Source: Candidatus Brennerbacteria bacterium
GTDB lineage: Bacteria; Patescibacteriota; Minisyncoccia; UBA6257; GWB1-50-10
Direction of reading: 5' to 3'
Length of the DNA stretch: 64,000 nucleotides
Assembly: GCA_043799565.1 (NCBI GenBank)
Contig: JAZDNP010000008.1
Span: 9,553 to 73,552, forward strand
Shown piece by piece: positions 3,388 through 59,221 of the stretch; positions within the stretch are counted from its first letter, which is position 1, and the number at the start of each line of letters is the position of its first letter. Position numbers and translations under genes: made by a program. Under the pieces are notes generated by a model that worked only from the letters and a program-made list of their open reading frames with translations, was not told where the DNA came from and ran no database searches.

Positions 3388-3759
3388 TTACCAGATTTCA
3401 AAGAGAAGTTTTCCACCCACTTTTTCCTTCCGCGCCTCGTGCCCCGCGCGAATACCGTTTGGCGTGGTCATGACCAAGAGTCCGTGCCCCTGCTTCACCT
3501 GCTTCACCCTACGATACCCCGCATAGCGCGCCACCGAAGGAGTGCTCTTGAAGCGGACGTCACGGATCGGGCGTTCCACGTTGAAATCAACCTCAATAAT
3601 CTTCTTCGGCGCACGGCCCTTCACTTCCACGTTTTTCAGGAATCCATGACGTGCAAGCACCTCGGCTACTTTGAGGTCCATCACCGTGTACGGCAACTTC
3701 GCCGATTTCTTGCCGGCGCGCCCCGCATTTTTCAGTTGTATAAGAAAATTAATGTACAT
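3388..3759 (-). CDS. rpsH: 30S ribosomal protein S8
   Basis: 123 aa; S8 motifs (TTPNGIRAGHEARKEKVGGKLLFEIW C-terminus). Confidence 0.92.
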   Translation of the reverse strand: MYINFLIQLKNAGRAGKKSAKLPYTVMDLKVAEVLARHGFLKNVEVKGRAPKKIIEVDFNVERPIRDVRFKSTPSVARYAGYRRVKQVKQGHGLLVMTTPNGIRAGHEARKEKVGGKLLFEIW

Positions 3760-3760
3760 A

Positions 3761-3946
3761 TTACCAAGATGCCTTTTTCACTCCAGGAATTTCCCCTTTG
3801 CTCGCGAGCTCGCGGAAGCAGATGCGGCAAAGATTGAAATCGCGCATATACCCGCGTCCTCGCCCGCACCGAAAACAGCGACGTACCACGCGTGTGGAAT
3901 ACTTCGGTTTTTTCTTTGCTCGTGCGATGACTGATGTCTTTGCCAT
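3761..3946 (-). CDS. rpsN: 30S ribosomal protein S14 type Z (zinc-binding)
   Basis: 61 aa with CFRCGR...CRIC (CxxC-x12-CxxC) typical of short S14 type Z; position between rplE and rpsH. Confidence 0.9.
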
Positions 3947-3960
3947 GGGTGAGTGTTAAT

Positions 3961-4488
3961 TTAACTCTTTGCGCCTACCTTTTTCAACGGCACGCCGATG
4001 GACTCGTAGAACGCGAACGCGCGCTCACGATCCCTCAGGCGAGGAACCGCCGTAATCTGGAGCCCGAACGATACCTTGGACTTTTCCGGATTGATTTCGG
4101 GAAACACATATTGTTCGCGAAGACCGATGTTCAAATTCCCATGGGTGTCCACGTTGTTTCTATCCAAACCGCGGAAGTCCTTCACACGCGGGAGTACGAT
4201 GCGAATGACCTTCGTCAAGAATTCGCGCATACGCGTACCGCGAAGCGTAATTTGTAGTCCCACCACGTCGCCCTCGCGCGTCTTAAAGCTTGCGACCGCT
4301 TTCTTTGCAGAACGGGGCGCCGCTTTCTGTCCGGTGATGGTCGCGAGTTCTTCCACGATTGCGGGAAGCACTTTTTCCTCGAATTGCGTCATGCTGCGCG
4401 CGCGACCCACCCCGACGTTCACGACGATTTTTGCGAGATCATTGTCCTTGCGAAATGTTTTGGTCATAAGTTTAAATAGTGCTTCCAC
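3961..4488 (-). CDS. rplE: 50S ribosomal protein L5
   Basis: 175 aa L5; conserved position after rplX. Confidence 0.9.
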   Translation of the reverse strand: MEALFKLMTKTFRKDNDLAKIVVNVGVGRARSMTQFEEKVLPAIVEELATITGQKAAPRSAKKAVASFKTREGDVVGLQITLRGTRMREFLTKVIRIVLPRVKDFRGLDRNNVDTHGNLNIGLREQYVFPEINPEKSKVSFGLQITAVPRLRDRERAFAFYESIGVPLKKVGAKS

Positions 4489-5588: not shown

Positions 5589-6002
5589 CTAATTTTTCAT
5601 GACGAAGCGGGTGCCGACCGGCAATTTGAACCCCGCACGTTTCAGCGCCGCGCGTGCGACCTCTTCCTTCACGCCGTCCACTTCAAAAAGCATGCGGCCG
5701 GGCTTCACGGGGAACACGTAGTGGTCCACGTCTCCCTTACCGCCTCCCAAGGTGACCTCCGGCGGAAGTTTTGTAATCGGCTTGTCGGGGAATATACGAA
5801 TCCACATCTTTCCTTCCTTTGCGAGTTGGTGACTGATGGCTTTGCGTGCCGCCTCTATCTGGTTTGACGTCACCCATGATGCCGAGGTCGCCTGGAGCCC
5901 ATAGCGCCCATACCCAAGCGTAACGCCGCGCGTTTCCACCAAGCGGCGGCGCGAGCGTCCTTTCTGCTGTTTACGAAACTTTTGTTTCTTAGGTTGCAAC
6001 AT
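5589..6002 (-). CDS. rplP: 50S ribosomal protein L16
   Basis: 137 aa (MLQPKKQKFRKQQKGR...) canonical L16 N-terminus. Confidence 0.93.
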   Translation of the reverse strand: MLQPKKQKFRKQQKGRSRRRLVETRGVTLGYGRYGLQATSASWVTSNQIEAARKAISHQLAKEGKMWIRIFPDKPITKLPPEVTLGGGKGDVDHYVFPVKPGRMLFEVDGVKEEVARAALKRAGFKLPVGTRFVMKN

Positions 6003-6012
6003 AATTCAAATA

Positions 6013-6705
6013 TTATCGCGTGCGCGACTGCGACTCATCCTTCTTCTCGAAAATATCGCCTTTGTAAATCCACACCTTCACGCCGACCGTGCCGTAGGTG
6101 TTGAACGACGTTGCTTCACCATAATCCACATTCGCACGGAGCGTTTGGAGCGGCATGCGTCCCTTCGCGAGCCAGTCGTTCCGTGAGATTTCTGCGCCGT
6201 TCAAACGGCCCGAAAGCCGGACTTTCGCGCCCAATACCTCGCGATTTTGCATGAGAAGCTCGAGCGTGCGCTTCATGGCGCGGCGGTACGGCAACCGCTT
6301 CTCAATATCGAACGCCATCTGCTGTGCGGTCACCGCGGCCGACACCTCCGAGCGTTTTAGCTCCTCAATGTTCAAATTGACCACGACCGGTCCTGCGATT
6401 TTCGCGGCAAGGCGATATTTCTTTATTTCCTGCACCAATCCATTTCGAAGGTCGTCTATCCCCTTCCCTCCGCGCCCGATGATAAGACCGGGGCGGCCGG
6501 CACGGATGGCAACACGAAGCGCGTCCGACGTCCGCTCAATCTCAATGCCCGCAATGCCCGCTTGGAGCACTTTGCTTCGGAGATATTCTCGGATGCGGAA
6601 ATCCTCCTCAAGGAAGTACCGGAGGCTCTTTTTGAAGAACCAGCGGTTCTGCCACGGAAGTGTGATGCCGATACGAAATGCGTTTGGTTTTACTTTTTGT
6701 CCCAT
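6013..6705 (-). CDS. rpsC: 30S ribosomal protein S3
   Basis: 230 aa; KH domain (GRGGKGID) and S3 C-domain. Confidence 0.93.
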   Translation of the reverse strand: MGQKVKPNAFRIGITLPWQNRWFFKKSLRYFLEEDFRIREYLRSKVLQAGIAGIEIERTSDALRVAIRAGRPGLIIGRGGKGIDDLRNGLVQEIKKYRLAAKIAGPVVVNLNIEELKRSEVSAAVTAQQMAFDIEKRLPYRRAMKRTLELLMQNREVLGAKVRLSGRLNGAEISRNDWLAKGRMPLQTLRANVDYGEATSFNTYGTVGVKVWIYKGDIFEKKDESQSRTR

Positions 6706-6710
6706 AGTTT

Positions 6711-7223
6711 TTATACCGCTTTCCTGCGGAAGAAGCGCTGTGCAAAACCTTTCTTTTCCACCTCCTTCTTCTCCTCACGGGCGTGGGTCTCTTCGTGCGC
6801 TTCAGGTTTCGGTTTCCTTTTTTTCTTCTCCTCCGTCTGTTTCTTCACGGGTTTCCGCACGGTGAAGCGCGAAGCTTTCGGCGTCGCGAGCGCTTCAAGA
6901 ATGATGGAAACATGACTTGTCTTCCGCTCGATAGGGCTCATGGCGCCGCGCGCGCGGGGCATCCAGCGCGTTGATTTTGGACCCTGGTCCACCCGTATCT
7001 CCTTTATGAAAAGTGCGTCCGCTTCTTTCTTCATCACCTGCTTTGCATTCGCGGTTGCGGAACGGAGCAGTTTCAAAAGTGGAGTTGCGGCGCGGCGGGG
7101 CAAAAGCAAAAGCTGTGCTTCCGCTTCGGTGACCGGAAGTCCGCGAATAACATCCACCACCGCACGCGTCTTTCGGGGCGCGATGTGAAGATAACGAAGT
7201 TGTGCTTTTGCTTGGGGTTCCAT
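6711..7223 (-). CDS. rplV: 50S ribosomal protein L22 with Lys/Glu-rich C-terminal extension
   Basis: L22 core in first ~115 aa; ~55-aa KKQTEEKKKRKPKPEAHEE... tail. Confidence 0.9.
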   Translation of the reverse strand: MEPQAKAQLRYLHIAPRKTRAVVDVIRGLPVTEAEAQLLLLPRRAATPLLKLLRSATANAKQVMKKEADALFIKEIRVDQGPKSTRWMPRARGAMSPIERKTSHVSIILEALATPKASRFTVRKPVKKQTEEKKKRKPKPEAHEETHAREEKKEVEKKGFAQRFFRRKAV

Positions 7224-9991: not shown

Positions 9992-10324
9992 TTATCCCAT
10001 TTTTATCTCCACATCCACGCCCGCGGGAAGATTCAAATCTGAGAGTGATTCAACCGTTTTAGGGCTGGGGTTCATGATGTCCAAAAGACGCTTGTGTACG
10101 CGGAGTTCAAACGCCTCGCGCGATTTCTTGTGCACGAAGGTCGAACGGTTCACGGTGTACTTTTTGAACTCCGTGGGGAGTGGAGTCGGACCCACCACCT
10201 CGCCCCCCTGCCGCCGAATCGCTTCAACGATTTGGCGGACCGAATTGTCGATGAGCTTCGCGTCGTATGACTTCACACGAAGACGAATGCGCTCCTTGCG
10301 AAGTTCCACGTCTTTTTTTGCCAT
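9992..10324 (-). CDS. rpsJ: 30S ribosomal protein S10
   Basis: 110 aa, canonical S10 (RIRLRVKSYD...LPAGVDVEIK). Confidence 0.95.
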   Translation of the reverse strand: MAKKDVELRKERIRLRVKSYDAKLIDNSVRQIVEAIRRQGGEVVGPTPLPTEFKKYTVNRSTFVHKKSREAFELRVHKRLLDIMNPSPKTVESLSDLNLPAGVDVEIKMG

Positions 10325-11523
10325 TACTTGGAAATCTTCGTCACCGCACCTGCGCCCACGGTCTTGCCTCCTTCACGGATAGCGAAACGCTGTTTCTCTT
10401 CAAGCGCGACAGGTGCGATAAGTTTCACCGAGATAGACACGGTGTCACCCGGCATCACCATTTCAACGCCCGCGGGAAGAATGACCTCGCCCGTGACGTC
10501 GGTCGTCCGAATGTAGAACTGCGGCTTGTATCCCTTGAAGAACGGCGTGTGACGCCCTCCTTCCTCTTTAGAGAGCACGTAGACCTCTGCGTCAAATTCA
10601 GTGTGGGGAGTGACCGAGCCGGGCTTCGCAATAACTTGCCCACGCTCCACGTCCTCTTTCTTCAAACCACGGAGAAGGATACCAACATTGTCGCCTGCAC
10701 GCGCCTCATCCAAGGTCTTCTGGAACATTTCAACACCCGTTACCACCGTCTTCTGGGTGGGTTTCAAACCGATGATTTCAACTTCCTCGTTCACTTTGAG
10801 GATTCCGCGCTCCGCACGACCCGTGCAGACCGTCCCACGACCCTCAATGGAGAAAATGTCTTCGATAGGCATAAGGAACGGCTTTTCCGTCTCACGAACC
10901 GGCTCCGGAATGTAATCGTCCAAGGCCTTCACGAGTTCCATGATGGGCTTCGCCGCTTCGTCGTCTGCCGACTTGGACTCAAGCGCCTTCAGGGCCGACC
11001 CGCGAATAATCGGGGTTGCGTCGCCATCGTAGTGATACTTCTTCAAAAGCTCACGAACCTCGGATTCAACGAGGTCTACAAGCTCCTTATCGTCCACCAT
11101 ATCAACCTTGTTCAAAAACACCACGATCTTCGGCACGCCGACCTGATATGCGAGCAGAATGTGCTCACGCGTTTGCGGCATAGGACCGTCCGCGGCTGAA
11201 ACCACGAGAATAGCACCGTCCATCTGGGCGGCACCCGTGATCATGTTCTTGATGTAGTCCGCGTGTCCCGGCGCATCGATGTGCGCGTAGTGACGCTTCT
11301 CGGACTCATACTCGGAGTGGTGAAGTGCGATCGTGATACCGCGCGCCTTTTCTTCCGGCGCGTTGTCGATCTGGTCCACCTTCTCCTCCTTCTTCGTCAG
11401 ACCTTTCATGAAGAGCACGTGCGTGATGGCCGCGGTAAGAGTGGTCTTGCCGTGGTCAACGTGGCCGATGGTCCCCACGTTCACGTGAGGCTTCGTCCGT
11501 TCGAACTTTGCTTTCTCTGCCAT
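10324..11523 (-). CDS. tuf: Elongation factor Tu
   Basis: 399 aa; [23 protein letters not shown]-motifs; full-length EF-Tu. Confidence 0.97.
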
Positions 11524-11630
11524 ATGCTTAATTTATGTTACGAGAAAATATTTACCCCCCCTTTTCGACTTTAAGGAGGCCTTAATTGGCTTGAATATCT
11601 TCGCGTATCCCGTAAAAGGTGTCAAGGGGA

Positions 11631-12704
11631 TCATTCCAACCCCTCCAAGAGGTCATCGAGCTCATCTTCCAATCCTGCATCGTCCAAAAGGTTGTCTAAA
11701 TCCTCAAGGTCAGTACGGCGAGAACTAGAAGAAATCAATTTGAATGTGGAAAGAATTTGCGCATATTCTCCCTTAACTTCAGAGGCGTCTTCGCCAAAAA
11801 ACTTTACTGTATAAAATTTTCCATCGTACGACGTCCACAAAACGCGTGAAGCAGGAATGCTCAACACACCATCTGTGAATGGTTCATATATGCTCTTGTA
11901 ATAAATCTCGCGTGCGTCCAGCCAATCAATTTTGTAAGCAGAGGCGATACCATTGTTACCGGCGTCATTTCCAAGCGCCGGCACGTCGGCTGTAACTGTT
12001 ACCGAGAAACCTCCTCCGCTGATGGGATTTGTTATTATAAACTGCTTATCCCAAGTTGGATTTAACCTCCCATTCCAACCAACCGGGTATTTCACCTCAT
12101 ATCCGAGTTGATCGTTCCGATACTTTTTCCAATCGGCAGAGACTGTAGCGGACGCGCCTTCATCCTCATCGTCATTCAATAATCCTTCAAACTCTTCATC
12201 AAAGATATCGTCCAGCTTCTCGAGCTGCTTTTTGGATTCCTCAAGCGCACGTTCAATGCCTTCCCTGGCCGATTCGGATACTTTCTCCAAGTTTCGTTCA
12301 AGCACCATTACGTGCTTTTGTGTTGCTTCTTGCGCCTTCACCTTGAGCGCTTCTCCTGCTTCCTCTCCTTTTTCTTTCAGCTCTTCTGCTTTTTGAAGCG
12401 CACGATTTAGCTGATTCTCATATTTTTCAAGCGTCCGTTCAGCGATATCCTCTTTGCCCTTCTCAAGCATCTTTTCATACTCCGCGAGGCGCACTTCGGC
12501 CAAATGGAGATATTGCTCCGCTTTCTTCTCTGCGCCGAAGGTGAAGAAAAGCTGGACGCCCTCCTTCCAAGATTTCAGGAAGTAGAGTGGGCTGTCGGGG
12601 AGCGTACCGGGGTCCGGCAAAGTTGAACTTGCAACCTGTGCCGACACGACCGAGCCAACAGTAAATGCCACGAGAAGCACGGACACTGCAAGGAATTGTT
12701 TCAT
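11631..12704 (-). CDS. Secreted protein with DUF5667-like N-domain, coiled-coil, and C-terminal domain shared with the neighbouring gene
   Basis: Signal peptide; LPDSPLYFLKSWKEG...coiled coil; WKKYRNDQLGYEVKYPVGW motif; ILSTFKLIS near C-terminus; acidic tail. Confidence 0.75.
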   Translation of the reverse strand: MKQFLAVSVLLVAFTVGSVVSAQVASSTLPDPGTLPDSPLYFLKSWKEGVQLFFTFGAEKKAEQYLHLAEVRLAEYEKMLEKGKEDIAERTLEKYENQLNRALQKAEELKEKGEEAGEALKVKAQEATQKHVMVLERNLEKVSESAREGIERALEESKKQLEKLDDIFDEEFEGLLNDDEDEGASATVSADWKKYRNDQLGYEVKYPVGWNGRLNPTWDKQFIITNPISGGGFSVTVTADVPALGNDAGNNGIASAYKIDWLDAREIYYKSIYEPFTDGVLSIPASRVLWTSYDGKFYTVKFFGEDASEVKGEYAQILSTFKLISSSSRRTDLEDLDNLLDDAGLEDELDDLLEGLE

Positions 12705-12723
12705 GTGCTAATTATAATAAAAA

Positions 12724-13713
12724 TTACCGTGCTTTACACACCGTAAACTTTCCCCACCCGTAATAGGTATAGATAGTGCCGCCAAGATTTTTACAAATCG
12801 TTTCGTCGGTAACGCCTTCATAAACTTTTATCGTGTATTCCTCCGCCGGTTTGGGGCAGTAATCACTGCAGGCAAAATGATCGATAATGCGCGGCTTAAC
12901 TTGAGCACCCGGGGAAATGAATTTGAAGGTGGAAAGAATCGTATTAAAAATCGTTGGATCGTATTCAAATGATCGAATGTCTGGTCCTTGCACCGACATT
13001 TGAACGGTAATCATTTTGCCGTCCTTAAAAAGTTGATATTCGTCAAAATAACTCTCACCGCAAGGCCCTCCTGAGGTCCGGGGCAAATAATGCTTTGCAA
13101 CGGTACCTAAAAGATCCACGTACTCATATGCTACGGGAGCTGTGGGATCAATGATCTTATTTTCAAAATCTTGCCTTCGCTTCCCCAAATCTACTCTCAC
13201 TAACTGGCCGATACTCGTAGGGCGAGGAACGCCGGTCATATCTCCGAACGAAGTGATGTATGCGAACGTCGAGGACACCATATCGTGAACTGCCACCCGA
13301 AAAACATGACGATTATTCAACTCATCAACGGAGGAAAGGTGTATGCGAAGATCGGCGAGTTGACCATTAACAAAACAACTTCCGCCTTCCCAATAGATCG
13401 GCGCAACATTTAATTCTTTCTCTAAATCACGCGCACTAAGATTTTCCGAGATTTCGGATTGGAAACTCGCTGGATATTTGAATTCAAGCCCATACCGCTC
13501 GTTGCGGTAGGTTTCCCAATTCTCCAATTGCGAATAATACTCGGACTCTGATTGATGAATTGATTCAAAGCCCTCCGGAAAGTCGGCAGCTCCATCGGAT
13601 GGTGCCGAGGGGACATTTTCCTGCGGTGTAAGCACCAAATATCCTCCCACTGCGACCGCAACGGCGAAAATAATGATAAGTGGAGCCAACGCAAAACCAC
13701 TTCTTTGGTTCAT
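12724..13713 (-). CDS. Membrane-anchored secreted protein, paralogous C-terminal domain (WETYRNERYGLEFKYP ... ILSTFKFIS), Cys-rich tail
   Basis: N-terminal TM anchor, same two motifs as the downstream gene, 4 Cys in last 50 aa; TATAAT 6 nt upstream of the ATG. Confidence 0.75.
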   Translation of the reverse strand: MNQRSGFALAPLIIIFAVAVAVGGYLVLTPQENVPSAPSDGAADFPEGFESIHQSESEYYSQLENWETYRNERYGLEFKYPASFQSEISENLSARDLEKELNVAPIYWEGGSCFVNGQLADLRIHLSSVDELNNRHVFRVAVHDMVSSTFAYITSFGDMTGVPRPTSIGQLVRVDLGKRRQDFENKIIDPTAPVAYEYVDLLGTVAKHYLPRTSGGPCGESYFDEYQLFKDGKMITVQMSVQGPDIRSFEYDPTIFNTILSTFKFISPGAQVKPRIIDHFACSDYCPKPAEEYTIKVYEGVTDETICKNLGGTIYTYYGWGKFTVCKAR

Positions 13714-13775
13714 GCTCTTATTATACCCCCTAACAAAAACAGCGCGTGATGTGCTCTCGGTGCAGGCGGCCGGTT

Positions 13776-15884
13776 CTATTTCTTCGTCCTTCCTTCTATC
13801 ACCGCCGTGGCTACGTTCCCTGGAACTTCGTCGTAGTGGGAAAACTCCATGGTGAATGACCCACGTCCTTGCGTCATGGAGCGGAGGTTCGTCACGTACC
13901 CGAACATTTCGGCCAAAGGCACATCCGCGTCTATCACACGCGCCATACCGCGCTCTCCCATCGCGGTGATTTTCGCGCGGCGTGAGGAAAGGTCGCCCGT
14001 TACGTCGCCCAAGAATTGGTCGGGCGCGATAGCCTGCACTTTCATGATGGGCTCAAGAAGCACCACCTTCGCTTGCTTCGCCGCTTCCTGGAGCGCCATA
14101 GATGCAGCGATTTTGAACGCGAATTCCGAAGAATCCACATCGTGGTATGAACCGTCATAGAGCGTCACTTTGAGGTCCGTCATTGGGTACCCGGCGAGCA
14201 CACCTTTCACAACGGCCTCTTCCAAGCCCTTCTCCACCGGCGCGATGAATTCCTGCGGGATGGTACCTCCCTTAATCTCGTCCACGAACTCATAGCCCTT
14301 GCCGCGTTCCATCGGCTCTATTCTTATCTTCACGTGGCCGTACTGACCTTTGCCACCGGACTGGCGAATGTACTTCCCTTCTGCGTCCGCTTTGCCTTTG
14401 ATGGTCTCTTTGTATGCCACCTGCGGACGACCGACGTTCGCTTCCACGTTGAATTCCCGCTTCATGCGGTCCACGATGATTTCCAAATGAAGTTCTCCCA
14501 TGCCGGCAATAAGCGTCTCGCCCGTATCGGGGTCGCCCGACACGCGGAACGTGGGGTCTTCCTCCGCAAGACGATGGAGCGCAAGTCCCATCTTCTCCTG
14601 GTCGGCCTTCGTCTTTGGTTCAATGCGAATTGTGATGACCGGCTCGGGGAATGTAATGCGCTCAAGCACGATGGGGTTTGCGGGATCCACCAAACTGTCT
14701 CCTGTCGTAGTGTTTTTCAAGCCCACGATAGCGCCGATGTCGCCCGCGTTTATTTCATCCACCTCTTCCCGATGGTTCGCGTGCATGAGCATGATGCGGC
14801 CTACGCGCTCCTGCTCATTTTTCGTTGAATTTAAAATATAGCTCCCTCGCTTCATCGCACCGGAGTAGACACGGAAGAATGTGAGCGACCCGACGAACGG
14901 GTCCGCCGCGATTTTGAACGCAAGTGCCGCAAACGGCGCATCGTCAGATGGTGCGCGCTCTTCCTCGGCGTGCGTGTCCGGGTGCGTCCCTTTCACCGGC
15001 GGAAGATCAACGGGAGAAGGGAGGTAGTCCACCACCGCGTCCAAAACCAACTGTACGCCTTTGTTCTTCAACGCCGAACCGCAAAGGATGGGCACGAGGC
15101 GTACTTTCAAGGTCGCGGCGCGAAGCGCTTTCTTCAAATCCGAAAGCGGAGGTTCTTTCCCTTCCAAATACTGGTGGAGCAATGTGTCGTCGGTCTCCGC
15201 AATATGCTCAATAAGATCGTGGCGATACTTTTCCACCTGCTCTTTCATATCCGCGGGAATTTCTCCCTTTACAACCCTCTCTCCCTTCTCGCCCTCAAAG
15301 CGATATGCCGTGCGGGTCAAAAGGTCCACGACGCCTTCAAACGTTCCCTCAATGCCGATGGGAAGCTGGAGGATAGCAAGATTTGTGGTGAGCCGCTCAC
15401 GGATGGATTGGATATCATGCTCAAAGTTCGCGCCCATGCGGTCCAACTTGTTGATGAAACATACGCGAGGTACGTGGTATTCGTCCGCGTAGCGCCAGTT
15501 GGTTTCCGATTGGGGCTCCACGCCCGCAACACCGTCAAAAACCACCACCGCGCCATCAAGTACACGGAGTGAACGTTTTACCTCCACAGTGAAGTCAATG
15601 TGGCCGGGGGTATCAATGAGGTTGATACGATGCTCGTGTGCTTTGTCGCCTGCCGCATACGTCGGGGTCCAGTAACACGTGGTCGCGGCTGAAGTAATGG
15701 TAATGCCACGTTCACGCTCCTGTTCCATCCAATCCATTATCGTGTCACCTTCATGCACTTCGCCGATCTTGTGCGACACGCCGGTATAAAAAAGAATGCG
15801 CTCGGAGACCGTAGTCTTCCCCGCATCAATGTGTGCGATGACGCCGATGTCGCGCACACGTTCCATGGGGTATTTTCGGGCCAT
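13776..15884 (-). CDS. fusA: Elongation factor G
   Basis: 702 aa; [17 protein letters not shown], all five EF-G domains. Confidence 0.97.
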
Positions 15885-15909: not shown

Positions 15910-16380
15910 TTAACGGCGTAAAAGCGACGCAAAAGCGCGGTTCGCTTCCGCCATGCGGTGCATGTCCTGTTTCTTCTTGATAGCGCTCCCCTCGTTCTTT
16001 GCGGCGAGTACAAGCTCTTCCGCCAAACGGTCCGCCATCGGTTTTCCTTTCTTTCCGCGCGCCGCGGCAATAATCCACCGCGCGGCAAGATAGAACTTAC
16101 GCTCGGGGCGCACCTCCTGCGGTATCTGATAGTTCGCCCCACCCACGCGGCGCGACACCACTTCTACAAGCGGCGTGGCGTTTTCCAATGCGCGTTCAAA
16201 AACCTTTACGGGGTCCTCTTTGGTGATTTCCTTAACTTTTTCAAACGCGCCATACACAATACTTTCCGCCGTGGATTTCTTGCCGTCCTCCATCACGTAG
16301 TTCACAAAACGCGCGAGGTCCAACCGGGCATACTCGGGGTCGGCGCTACGCGAAGGACGTTTAAAATTTTTTCGTCTCAT
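15910..16380 (-). CDS. rpsG: 30S ribosomal protein S7
   Basis: 156 aa canonical S7. Confidence 0.95.
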   Translation of the reverse strand: MRRKNFKRPSRSADPEYARLDLARFVNYVMEDGKKSTAESIVYGAFEKVKEITKEDPVKVFERALENATPLVEVVSRRVGGANYQIPQEVRPERKFYLAARWIIAAARGKKGKPMADRLAEELVLAAKNEGSAIKKKQDMHRMAEANRAFASLLRR

Positions 16381-16389
16381 GCTTCTCTA

Positions 16390-16812
16390 TTATTTACCTG
16401 CTTTCGGGGTCTTCGCCCCGTACTTGGAGCGCTGTTGCCTGCGGTTCTCTACGCCGCCCGTGTCCAACACGCCACGCACGATGTGATATCGCACGCCTGG
16501 AAGGTCCTTCACGCGGCCCCCGCGGATCATAACGACCGAGTGCTCCTGCAAATTGTGACCTTCACCAGGAATGTACGCCGTTACCTCCATGCCGTTCGTG
16601 AGGCGAACACGCGCAACTTTACGCAAGGCCGAGTTAGGTTTCTTCGGCGTCGTGGTGAATACCTTCACACACACCCCACGCTTGAAAGGTGAGGGTGAGT
16701 TTACCGGCCGATTCTTCAGATAATTGAAATAGAAACCAAGCCCCGGGGTTTTGTCCTTCCTCGCGGTCCTTGAGCGACCCTTCTTAATGAGTTGGTTCAC
16801 TGTAGGCATCAA
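16390..16812 (-). CDS. rpsL: 30S ribosomal protein S12
   Basis: 140 aa; [19 protein letters not shown] signature. Confidence 0.96.
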
Positions 16813-16868
16813 AAAATGCGTGCTTCCACGCTGGAAAAGTATACCCTGCAGGGCTTTCGGAAGTCAAT

Positions 16869-17554: not shown

Positions 17555-18877
17555 TCACTTCATAAGAACCATCTTCCGCGTGAGCGTTGCACCGTTCGCC
17601 CGTAAGCGATAGATGTACGTTCCCGAAGGAAGCGCTGATGCATCGAAGTGGATAGAATGCGTCCCTGCCGCACGTTCTCCTTCCGCAACCGTTGCGACCG
17701 CTTCGCCGAGCATATTGTACGCAATGAGCGAAACAGAGCCGGCCGTCGGCAGTGCGAACGTGATGGCCGTGGTCGGATTGAACGGATTCGGATAGTTCTG
17801 TCCGAGCGAGAAATCGCTCGGCGTAGCGGACAGATCGTCCGCCGCCGTGGTTTGCCCAACCTTCTCTACCACCAACGGAACGCCTTCGTTCACCTTCCCG
17901 GTGATCTCCAGATCCGCGATTCGCGCACGAGGAATGAACAAGAGTTCTCCGTCGCCCGCAAGCGGTTCCAGGTTCACGAAACCGAGCCGCGCCTCCTTAT
18001 CACTCCCGCGAACGATCTTGGAAAGTGTTCGCCGGAGAAGCGGTTGTGATTCGAGCGTGAAGGCCGTCTTTCCCTTAATAGTCAGGTCCGCGCTTACCAG
18101 CGACGAACCGTCCACCGTTCGGAGAGAGACCCCGCCTTCCACTTCCTTCGCGACGAGATGGATTTTCCCGAATCCGCCACTCACAGAAATTGAGGACAAA
18201 TTCTCGTAGTCCTCCACGTCCAGGCGATACGAGGGATATGCGACGCGGTAGAGGATCTGATAACAATCCCACACATCTACCACTCCATCGCCCGACACAT
18301 CCGCACGTAGAGATTCATCTTCCGTGAATGCGAAGTTGGTATCGGGAATTGCGATATCGATGCCTCGAACGACGTCCAACACGGTGAGTGTATCGTCTCC
18401 GTTCACATCGCCCGGTCGGCCGTAGTTCCCCGCGATGACCGAGCCGCCGATGAACGCCGGCACGATGGTATCGTTCAGAAATACGCGGGGTGTAGGAAAC
18501 GCTACCGCGGTCCCCGGTGTCACATAGCCTGCAAGACGCACCCGGAACGAACCCAATACCTCTGACCCCGTGAAAGCATTCTTGGACGCGAGTACGATCC
18601 GATTGGTGTCCTGGGTAACATATTGCGCGGTGATCCAATTCGGGAATGCCTCCCAATTCAGCCAAAACCACGATCGTGGCGCAAGGGAATCGGACCCGTA
18701 GGCAAGCAGAAGATCGATGCCACGAACAGGCACCGAGGTCGTGAGCTTTGCGCTCACCCGGATGATCGTTCCTGGGATGGCTTTCCGGTCCCCGATGTGG
18801 AACGACGCAAGCGGCGCCTGTGCGAGTGCGACAGACGGAATGACCGCCGCGATGATCAATGCGAAAAGTGTTCGCAT
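17555..18877 (-). CDS. Secreted protein with dockerin-like repeat pair and C-terminal T9SS-type (Por_Secre_tail-like) sorting domain
   Basis: Signal peptide; DVNGDDTLTVLD and DVSGDGVVDVWD dockerin-like calcium-binding repeats; C-terminal LGQNYPNPFNPTTAITFALP...SGTYIYRLRANGATLTRKMVLMK matches the T9SS CTD consensus. Confidence 0.75.
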   Translation of the reverse strand: MRTLFALIIAAVIPSVALAQAPLASFHIGDRKAIPGTIIRVSAKLTTSVPVRGIDLLLAYGSDSLAPRSWFWLNWEAFPNWITAQYVTQDTNRIVLASKNAFTGSEVLGSFRVRLAGYVTPGTAVAFPTPRVFLNDTIVPAFIGGSVIAGNYGRPGDVNGDDTLTVLDVVRGIDIAIPDTNFAFTEDESLRADVSGDGVVDVWDCYQILYRVAYPSYRLDVEDYENLSSISVSGGFGKIHLVAKEVEGGVSLRTVDGSSLVSADLTIKGKTAFTLESQPLLRRTLSKIVRGSDKEARLGFVNLEPLAGDGELLFIPRARIADLEITGKVNEGVPLVVEKVGQTTAADDLSATPSDFSLGQNYPNPFNPTTAITFALPTAGSVSLIAYNMLGEAVATVAEGERAAGTHSIHFDASALPSGTYIYRLRANGATLTRKMVLMK

Positions 18878-41165: not shown

Positions 41166-41720
41166 CTAGAGCTCCACCTGCGGCGCGTTTTCAGCACCTT
41201 CCGCCGCTTCAAAGTATTCGCGTTCACCGAAACCAAAGATGCTCGCAACTACATTGCTCGGAAAACGCTTTACCGAAACATTCAATTCACGCACCGCATC
41301 ATTGAACCGCCGGCGCTCCACCGACACGCGATTTTCCGTGCCTGCGAGTTCCGCCATAAGTCCATTCACACTCTCAACGGAACGAAGCTGTGGATAGTTT
41401 TCCATAATGACGAGGAGCCGCCCCAAAGCGCTTTCCACTTCGGTTGCTGCCGCCGCTTTTTTATCCACCGTACCTGCACCCGCGTACCGCGTGCGCGCAT
41501 CCGCCAAAGCGCCGAACACTTCCTCCTCCTGCGCCATAATTCCCTTCACCGCATTCACAAGATTCGGGATGAGGTCAAAACGGCGCTGGTATGCCGTCTC
41601 CACCTGCGCCCACTGGCCATCTACCGCCTCATTCTTCCCCACAAAACCGTTATACGCACTCCACCCATAGAGAAGCACCAACGCCACGACTGCAATCACA
41701 ATCCACCAAGTTTTATTCAT
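41166..41720 (-). CDS. LemA family protein
   Basis: N-terminal TM then LemA core (QVETAYQRRFDLIPNLV...MENYPQLRS...RRRFNDAVRELN); conserved LemA-TPM gene pair. Confidence 0.88.
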   Translation of the reverse strand: MNKTWWIVIAVVALVLLYGWSAYNGFVGKNEAVDGQWAQVETAYQRRFDLIPNLVNAVKGIMAQEEEVFGALADARTRYAGAGTVDKKAAAATEVESALGRLLVIMENYPQLRSVESVNGLMAELAGTENRVSVERRRFNDAVRELNVSVKRFPSNVVASIFGFGEREYFEAAEGAENAPQVEL

Positions 41721-41780
41721 AACGGCATTATATCACAAAATAATACGCCGCTCCGTCATAAAGACCGGAGCGGCATTGAT

Positions 41781-56029: not shown

Positions 56030-59221
<3,192 letters not shown>

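Follow-up and report, generated by a model that had tools for sequence, protein, structure and literature searches.

A putative exported-protein island separates fusA from tuf in a Candidatus Brennerbacteria genome

fusA and tuf, which encode EF-G and EF-Tu in the canonical str operon (rpsL-rpsG-fusA-tuf), normally lie adjacent to each other with a tight junction between them. Variable surface loci are known from other positions between housekeeping genes, as with the pneumococcal cps locus (dexB/aliA) and the Escherichia coli O-antigen locus (galF/gnd). Bacteria of the Candidate Phyla Radiation (CPR, or Patescibacteria) have tiny genomes and many exported proteins, whose function is largely unknown and which probably serve in dealing with hosts or surroundings; in bacteria, the fold shared by PsbP, DcrB, LpqN, and Tsi3 is typical of periplasmic or surface binding proteins. 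Here we describe a 64-kb stretch (the window, to which all coordinates refer unless a locus is named) of a metagenome-assembled genome of the CPR bacterium Candidatus Brennerbacteria, in which fusA and tuf are 2.25 kb apart and enclose two genes that we call geneA and geneB. We favor, with moderate confidence, the reading that these genes constitute a lineage-specific island of exported proteins at the fusA/tuf junction, in which geneB is resident and geneA variable, each gene would be transcribed from its own leaderless promoter, and both products would be extracytoplasmic binding proteins.

Pfam already has families for both of the protein domains involved, with a function that is either unknown or generic. 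NCBI entries identical and full-length to both products, on a 110-kb contig of Candidatus Brennerbacteria, are labeled "hypothetical protein V1885_01760" (geneA) and "DUF5667 domain-containing protein" (geneB). What is new here is the tailed, tuf-linked DUF5667 subfamily, the predicted fold of the accompanying PsbP-like module, its optional insertion and apparent exchange between carriers, and the clade-wide split between fusA and tuf. None of the literature that mentions Brennerbacteria appears, by title or abstract, to concern this locus.

The genes between fusA and tuf and their relatives

geneA (12724-13713, 329 aa) encodes an N-terminal membrane anchor, a PsbP-like module, and a 4-Cys knob, and geneB (11631-12704, 357 aa) a signal peptide, a DUF5667 helical bundle, a PsbP-like module, and acidic terminal helices, as seen from the ORFs, AlphaFold models of both products, and, for geneB, Pfam. 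Both are intact and lie on the minus strand, like fusA (13776-15884, 702 aa) upstream and tuf (10324-11523, 399 aa) downstream; the spacers are 62 nt (fusA/geneA), 19 nt (geneA/geneB), and 107 nt (geneB/tuf). The insertion of two same-strand genes at this place, claimed by an earlier sequence-only reading of the window, is borne out by the ORF layout and by the identical NCBI calls. The island differs from its surroundings in composition, with a G+C content of ~45-47% across 11.5-13.75 kb vs. ~55% in the flanks and third-position G+C (GC3) values of 0.448 (geneA) and 0.492 (geneB) vs. 0.63-0.69 in the flanking translation genes.

To place the island in its lineage, related loci (L numbers) were found through full-length and short relatives of geneB and through a scan of one genome per GTDB species. 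Close relatives have fusA genes 92-97% identical to that of the window where fusA lies on the contig (L001, L002, L004-L006). A DUF5667 gene with the acidic tail of geneB occurs directly upstream of tuf in the window and six related loci (L001, L003, L004 = L009, L007, L008); in a seventh, L002, an IS-type integrase gene (Pfam rve and rve_3; 3456-4439 of that locus) separates the tailed gene from the expected tuf site. What precedes the tailed gene varies. fusA is followed in L001 by genes for a 216-aa anchored protein, a 148-aa protein, and a 348-aa geneB-like protein before tuf, and in L002 by genes for a 73-aa protein, a 268-aa anchored PsbP-like protein, and a 367-aa geneB-like protein before the integrase gene. 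L003 holds a 221-aa anchored PsbP-like protein, a 391-aa protein with DUF5667 and a PsbP-like module, and a 350-aa geneB-like protein, followed by tuf. In L004, on a 570-kb contig, the order is rpsL, rpsG, fusA, a 144-aa protein, a 238-aa DUF5667 protein with the tail and no PsbP-like module, tuf, and rpsJ. L007 has a protein with two PsbP-like modules and a 207-aa DUF5667-plus-tail protein before tuf, and L008 a 429-aa protein, three anchored PsbP-like genes, and a 216-aa DUF5667-plus-tail protein before tuf. Three of the relatives' tailed genes (L004, L007, L008) lack the module, and anchored geneA-type genes number zero to three. A conserved Arg-rich ORF of 144-148 aa with the canonical Shine-Dalgarno (SD) sequence GAAAGGAG follows fusA in two close relatives (L001 1621-2067; L004 5535-5969); it matches nothing in Pfam, and the window does not contain it.

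Relative to the window geneB, its orthologues are 74-79% identical in the DUF5667 part and 59-82% in the tail, and 32-35% identical in the module where they have one. The identity of the N-domain, together with the invariant positions of the tail, indicates, at the level of aligned sequences, purifying selection and vertical retention. Based on these comparisons, geneB is the conserved resident of the island and geneA its variable cargo. The worry that the insertion might be sporadic, with genes decayed elsewhere, does not hold for geneB in close relatives; it has more substance for the geneA-type genes, with their zero to three copies, and for intervals that contain frameshifted-looking fragments, toxin-antitoxin pairs, or an IS element. 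Such intervals include those of more distant Paceibacteria (fusA 75-79% identical: L010, assigned to Jorgensenbacteria, L013, L017, and L036), where DUF5667 genes without the tail follow fusA; pairs resembling Phd/ParE and nucleotidyltransferase (MNT)/HEPN occur in the interval of L010, L011, and L017, and L017 holds DUF5667 fragments that look frameshifted.

Outgroups were taken from a tuf-centered metagenome sample, in which the closest relatives are not among the matches listed; the following gaps refer to the matches listed. The gap between fusA and tuf measures 109-305 nt in the nearest outgroup lineages (tuf 82-88% identical) and 0.6-4 kb, with unrelated cargo, in CPR-like lineages of lower G+C (tuf 73-79%). 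In bacteria that are more distant and presumably outside the CPR, it is 3-183 nt, mostly below 100, where fusA lies upstream. The cargo of the CPR-like gaps comprises antitoxins and, from translations read by eye, a histidine kinase-like gene, pyrD-pyrE-pyrF in two loci (L097 3783-6289; L100 3196-5690), and rplJ-rplL in one (L127 3624-4711). The gaps of outgroups and relatives together show that several of the sampled related lineages have an interrupted fusA-tuf junction, and that the DUF5667/PsbP-like content is clade-specific.

The unrelated genes in the gaps of other CPR-like lineages are also what one would expect if the interval were simply a hotspot for insertions, whose cargo arrived recently, is dispensable, and serves no lineage-specific role. 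The low GC3 of the island, the integrase in L002, the Phd/ParE and MNT/HEPN-like pairs, and the fragments in L017 are all in keeping with that explanation; on the other hand, the window and all seven related loci have an intact tailed DUF5667 gene, with the fixed position and signs of retention described above. A hotspot suits geneA better than geneB, and as an account of the whole island we regard it as quite unlikely.

The geneB product begins with a putative Sec-type signal peptide (residues 1-22, 12639-12704), read from the N-terminus MKQFLAVSVLLVAFTVGSVVSA with cleavage presumed after VSA and before Q; A22 and Q23 are invariant in 11 orthologues. Right behind it lies the N-terminal DUF5667 domain (residues 33-167, 12204-12608), which matches Pfam PF18915 with an E-value of 2.8e-23 and 82.6 bits (cut-off 27), residues 33-144 aligning with positions 1-98 of the 99-position profile, and in which the motif LPDxPxYFLK is invariant in the orthologue alignment. 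In an AlphaFold model from a 34-sequence alignment (pLDDT 72.9), the helix of the signal peptide is followed by five helices in antiparallel arrangement (residues 39-167, pLDDT 81-92); an acidic linker modeled with low confidence leads to a module rich in beta strands (~189-325), and two helices (327-356) end the chain. The sequence-only reading had recognized the export sequence, the DUF5667-like LPDSPLYF N-domain, and the acidic tail, all of which are recovered here; its "long coiled coil" is instead predicted to be a compact antiparallel helical bundle. The PsbP-like module (residues 189-325, 11730-12140), absent from the orthologues in L004, L007, and L008, is an optional insert in the acidic linker and is not orthologous between relatives.

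The tail itself (residues 331-357, 11634-11714; DLEDLDNLLDDAGLEDELDDLLEGLE) is conserved in 11 orthologues, corresponds to the two predicted terminal helices, and contains 13 D/E and no K/R over its 27 residues. It is purely acidic and amphipathic, with no hydrophobic segment and no Pfam match. The consensus of the eleven tailed orthologues is [LI]xxL[LI]DDxGLE[DN]ELDxLLEGLE, with nine invariant positions (D341, D342, G344, L345, E348, L349, L352, L353, and G355), and only 4 of 6114 DUF5667 cluster representatives (50% clustering) cover it. We considered whether the tail is a C-terminal sorting signal of the LPXTG, PEP-CTERM, or T9SS CTD kind and dropped the idea: two proteins (P0016 and P0019) carry the acidic motif internally and continue beyond it with additional domains, so the motif appears to be part of the scaffold. 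Searches beyond Pfam added little. A PDB sequence search with the geneB orthologue profile gave only coiled-coil-type noise (best E 0.017), PADLOC only a weak match to a helical region of ZorA (E 0.0011), which we take as compositional, and PHROGs one uninformative family of unknown function over the DUF5667 region (E 6e-5); a literature search found no paper on DUF5667.

geneA begins with MNQRSGF followed by a hydrophobic signal-anchor (residues 9-28, 13630-13689), and an AlphaFold model from 62 sequences (pLDDT 70.2, pTM 0.61) predicts a helix at 9-27 and a mixed strand/helix module at ~64-267; the signal or anchor sequence noticed earlier is thus present. The module (residues 64-267, 12913-13524) is bounded by WETYRNERYGLEFKYP and ILSTFKFIS and is assigned through Foldseek and PsbP_2 matches of its homologues. 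It is followed by a 4-Cys mini-domain (residues 277-329, 12727-12885; DHFACSDYCP...YTYYGWGKFTVC), whose cysteines, C282, C286, C307, and C326, agree with the 4-Cys tail described previously; C113 and C218 lie outside it. This small beta/alpha unit is poorly modeled (pLDDT 50-60) and mobile, being C-terminal in geneA and P0002, N-terminal in P0003, and internal in P0004, a protein with SLH domains. Close relatives of geneA are few: six were found among 5.8 billion proteins and, beyond the identical entry, they align only in short patches; a profile built from geneA and the relatives' island paralogues recovered 80 CPR proteins, 17 of which match Pfam PsbP_2.

The N-terminus of the island paralogues, M.RHGFA.LP.III.LAVIAAVGGY, bears on whether geneA-type anchors are prepilin-like substrates, cut after the Gly of M..(K/R/H/S)G/F and displayed by a type IV pilus-like apparatus as variable adhesins. 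Leaders such as MNQRSG/FALAP and MNRHG/FATLP (the slash marking the cut), followed by ~20 hydrophobic residues, are conserved among these paralogues, and several CPR PsbP_2 proteins begin with M..QKGF(A/S) and a hydrophobic stretch. The Glu at +5 of true prepilins is, however, absent or replaced by Pro, as in geneA itself, no pilin or N_methyl HMM in Pfam or NCBIfam matches geneA even at E-values up to 1, and a plain signal-anchor accounts equally well for the sequence; we therefore do not assign geneA to the type IV pilins or pseudopilins (class III signal peptides) and consider the prepilin idea very unlikely. As a separate observation, several of the CPR PsbP_2 proteins (among P0129-P0190) start M..QKG(F/I/L)(A/S), continue with ~20 hydrophobic residues and GG.Y, and lack Glu at +5, which may be compared with positions 13693-13713 of the window.

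The shared PsbP-like module and its carriers

The motifs W..YRN..G.E.KYP and ILSTFK(F/L)IS, which the sequence-only reading took as marks of a common domain, are present in both proteins, and the structure prediction it called for gives both models the same fold. Foldseek searches against the PDB return PsbP, cyanobacterial PsbP (CyanoP), and Tsi3 with probability 1.0 for both, and DcrB and the mycobacterial Apa and LpqN additionally for geneA; the best E-values are 3e-5 (geneA) and 4.4e-5 (geneB), and target-normalized TM scores are 0.5-0.66. The predicted models have the alpha-beta-alpha sandwich of PsbP, CyanoP, and DcrB, and of the 62 rows in the alignment of geneA and its homologues, 55 match PsbP_2 (E up to 0.01, best 2.1e-12) and 8 match PsbP itself. 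As far as these models go, geneA and geneB share one module of ~140-200 aa with the PsbP/Mog1/DcrB/Tsi3 fold. BLASTP of geneA against geneB aligns just two short patches at the ends (E 1e-4 and 0.05); end motifs alone in BLASTP combined with a common fold mean that the two genes share a domain family and are not recent tandem duplicates. The earlier description as "tandem paralogous" holds for this one module and fails for the genes as wholes, which differ in architecture and align only at the module ends. Our literature search found no paper on PsbP-like proteins in the CPR.

Tsi3 is the top Foldseek match of geneA (E 3e-5, target-normalized TM 0.64-0.66), and the modules are hypervariable, which together invite the interpretation that they are Tsi3-type immunity or inhibitor proteins against muramidases, protecting the cell wall and diversifying in an arms race. 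The similarity is at the level of fold only (12-19% identity), and PsbP, DcrB, Apa, and LpqN, whose functions are unrelated, score similarly. No effector gene is adjacent, the neighbors being fusA, tuf, and each other, and PADLOC offers nothing besides the compositional geneB match. With no adjacent muramidase effector and fold similarity alone, we do not class either product as a Tsi3-type type VI secretion system (T6SS) immunity protein, and hold a role of this kind to be highly improbable.

Among the island modules, conservation is limited to the two terminal motifs, and similarity between modules crosses the boundary between carriers. The module of geneB has its closest match in an anchor-type gene of L007 (41% over 136 aa, E 2e-34). 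The module that L003 carries on a DUF5667 protein is 65% identical over 118 aa (E 2e-60) to one carried by an anchored protein of L008. From these sequence relationships we conclude that PsbP-like modules have moved between anchor-type and DUF5667-type carriers in related genomes. Genes that bear a module have a GC3 below that of the backbone, whereas the module-free short forms in relatives have GC3 values of 0.61-0.73, nearer those of their backbones. The module ends are also similar at the codon level (W.TYRNEQYGFE.KYP and ILSTFKFIS), which could mark recombination joints; we leave this as a hint, since host codon preference would explain it as well, the AT-rich genome L013 using AT-rich codons at the same ends.

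A bolder extension of the exported-island reading is that the fusA/tuf gap of this Paceibacteria clade is a dedicated surface-variation locus, in which PsbP-like cassettes are swapped by recombination, through near-invariant flanks and conserved module ends, both from genome to genome and from one carrier (the membrane anchor, taken as prepilin-like) to the other (the DUF5667 scaffold) and back, changing partner, host, or phage specificity in an ultra-small and probably episymbiotic bacterium. We give this extension rather little credence.

Under the island reading itself, both products would be extracytoplasmic binding proteins of the cell surface or envelope: a constant scaffold would be formed by the DUF5667 bundle and the terminal acidic helices, and the PsbP-like module, either borne by the scaffold or encoded next to it, would be the variable part that binds a ligand or partner. 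Candidate roles are attachment to a host or particle and maintenance or protection of the envelope. An extracytoplasmic role is suggested by the putative export signals, by the disulfide-type module shared with an SLH-domain protein, by the predicted fold, and by the partner domains of the DUF5667 family, which look extracellular (Fn3-like repeats read by eye, Pfam CHRD (PF07452), and Cys-rich tails).

Given the position between two translational GTPases, both products could instead be partners of EF-G or EF-Tu in the cytoplasm. A GTPase, Ran, is bound by the Mog1 fold, and the acidic tail is reminiscent of the tails of the ribosomal stalk; a PsbP/Mog1 fold is predicted here, and in 33 of 80 genome loci a different DUF5667 orthologue group is flanked by genes that look by eye like thrS on one side and miaB-miaA on the other. 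Such partners would, however, hardly carry the N-terminal export or anchor sequences present on both proteins, the Cys module common to geneA and an SLH-domain wall protein, or relatives with extracellular-type domains, and the PsbP-like module is dispensable in orthologues; we consider a cytoplasmic role of this kind barely credible.

Several further observations concern the DUF5667 family at large. The second orthologue group has its conserved address among species-representative loci (L009-L088), with thrS upstream and miaB (27 loci) and miaA (22 loci) downstream, all from N-termini read by eye, so that DUF5667 genes sit among translation-related genes in two contexts. DUF5667 homologues also occur in DPANN archaea (Aenigmatarchaeota; L055 and L063, ~5974-6780), adjoining small membrane proteins, and in a member of the Syntrophomonadaceae (L035 4232-6804), right after a sigma/anti-sigma pair that resembles SigI/RsgI by eye.

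Transcription signals of the island and of tuf

A TATAAT −10 hexamer stands 6 nt before the geneA ATG (13720-13725, minus strand), as the sequence-only reading had stated, and geneB, where it had been missed, has the same arrangement (12711-12716, minus), which recurs in the orthologues of L001, L004, L007, L010, and L013. TATAAT-N6-ATG occurs four times in the window, vs. 0.14 expected (~30-fold), and all four sites (2409-2423, 12702-12716, 13711-13725, and 41718-41732, all minus) are at ORF starts. Looser −10 variants are found 6-8 nt upstream of ORFs starting at 59221, 51870, 48348, 29917, 24407, and 1479, whose N-termini resemble, by eye, rpoB, ssb, secY, and others. The sequence pattern suggests that leaderless mRNAs may be widespread in this genome; a literature search on leaderless transcription in Patescibacteria returned nothing relevant. 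In the relatives, a −10-like hexamer lies 6-8 nt before most island genes, in several cases in the TG-extended form, and in L004, L001, and L002 a 10-12 bp stem followed by a T-run lies immediately upstream of the island promoters.

tuf is preceded by a promoter-like site of its own, TTGACA, 17 nt, and GAAGAT (11597-11625, minus), in which TTGACA (11620-11625) and A2, A5, and T6 of the second hexamer (GAnnAT) are invariant in six of six relatives; the site falls below a strict consensus scan, and the promoter previously proposed for tuf corresponds to it. Within the tuf leader (11524-11630), a hairpin (GGCCUCCUU / AAGGGGGG; 11554-11581, minus) followed by a U-rich run is likewise conserved in all six relatives. 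Its arms contain an anti-SD-like CCUCCUU and the SD-like AAGGGGGG ~38 nt before the ATG, and the start codon itself has no nearby SD, an arrangement also conserved in all six. Because the hairpin shows no compensatory changes and its folding energy (−9.8 kcal/mol) is not better than that of shuffled sequences, we make no claim for an RNA element; a search of Rfam with the whole window and the island gave three tRNAs elsewhere and no match in the leaders.

Based on the leaderless-type −10 elements and the conserved tuf site, a separate promoter for each gene fits the sequence better than simple co-transcription in the str operon. On this view, leaderless mRNAs of geneA and geneB would arise from the −10 element before each gene, and tuf would use the promoter in front of it; the str operon would then be split here, and the island genes would not be mere extra cistrons. 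The competing explanation takes geneA and geneB for a tandemly duplicated pair that joined the str operon as additional cistrons, co-transcribed with fusA and tuf and hence among the most abundant proteins of the cell. It draws on the common strand and short spacers, on the missing strong terminator in the window between fusA and tuf, and on the position of the only strict sigma-70 consensus site within 10.2-17.0 kb, which precedes rpsL (16838-16867). Duplication is not what the single shared module with its end-patch similarity would lead one to expect, nor is the closer kinship of the geneB module to another genome's anchor-gene module than to that of geneA; co-transcription at a high level sits poorly with the leaderless-type −10 on both genes, with the strong terminators before the orthologous promoters in relatives, and with a GC3 far below that of the neighboring, highly expressed translation genes. 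We judge this explanation unlikely. That the genes, being embedded in a highly expressed locus as stated earlier, are expressed along with it is, in view of the −10 elements, the terminators in relatives, and the promoter-like site of tuf, doubtful.

Several points weigh against the island reading. On the minus strand of the window, neither the fusA/geneA spacer nor the geneB/tuf spacer has a convincing terminator, so that read-through from the rpsL promoter, alongside the genes' own promoters, is quite possible. The geneA match to Pfam PsbP_2 (PF18933; residues 54-91) reaches only 17.5 bits, below the cut-off of 27, geneB has no such match, and both models are of moderate confidence (pLDDT 70-73), with poorly modeled stretches within the modules. 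The signal peptide and topology were judged from sequence alone, and the division into a scaffold and a variable binder is read from the architecture; the literature search turned up neither a phenotype nor a ligand or partner for proteins with DUF5667 or for the PsbP_2 proteins of the CPR. Finally, the low GC3 and the divergence of the modules could reflect relaxed constraint instead of exchange.

Comparison with known systems

The exported-island reading does not overturn current views; its value is as an entry point for structural and localization work on two very abundant, uncharacterized CPR domains. The locus defines a subfamily of DUF5667, a family of more than 6000 clusters at 50% identity, with a fixed genomic address and an acidic motif. 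It leads to a model-based assignment of the CPR "W.TYRN...STFKF" domain to the PsbP/DcrB/Tsi3 fold and shows the domain to be a module that can move from one type of carrier to another. It also shows the fusA-tuf junction split here and in several other related lineages sampled, and provides leaderless transcription in this genome with a clear-cut sequence signature.

Compared with the canonical str operon, the window keeps the core gene order and strand (rpsL 16390-16812 and rpsG 15910-16380, both minus, then fusA and tuf, with rpsJ and the S10 operon following on the minus strand) and the consensus promoter before rpsL; it differs in the distance between fusA and tuf and in giving tuf a conserved promoter-like site and leader hairpin of its own. 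Next to the str operon, a 440-aa protein with a putative signal peptide (17555-18877, minus) matches Pfam Por_Secre_tail (34.3 bits, cut-off 27) at its C-terminus and, weakly, dockerin; CPR bacteria are thought to have no outer membrane, so one would not expect a T9SS sorting tail in them, and L004 has no such gene at the same position.

With the Pfam DUF5667 family, which is exported and found mainly in CPR/Patescibacteria and Firmicutes, geneB shares the putative signal peptide, the LPDSPLYFLK motif, and an N-terminal domain followed by a variable C-terminal module. It differs in belonging to a narrow subgroup with the acidic motif LLDDxGLEDELDxLLEGLE and a fixed place upstream of tuf, and in having its module inserted before that motif and not appended after it. 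The window proteins are 12-21% identical to solved members of the PsbP/CyanoP/Mog1/DcrB/Tsi3/LpqN-Apa fold, and the island is surrounded by no photosystem, T6SS, or mycobacterial envelope context. Like the cps and O-antigen loci, it places variable, surface-related genes of atypical composition between conserved flanks, with content that differs among close relatives. Unlike those loci, its cargo is a few modular proteins and no polysaccharide pathway, exchange through its flanks is only putative, and its resident gene, geneB, is conserved.

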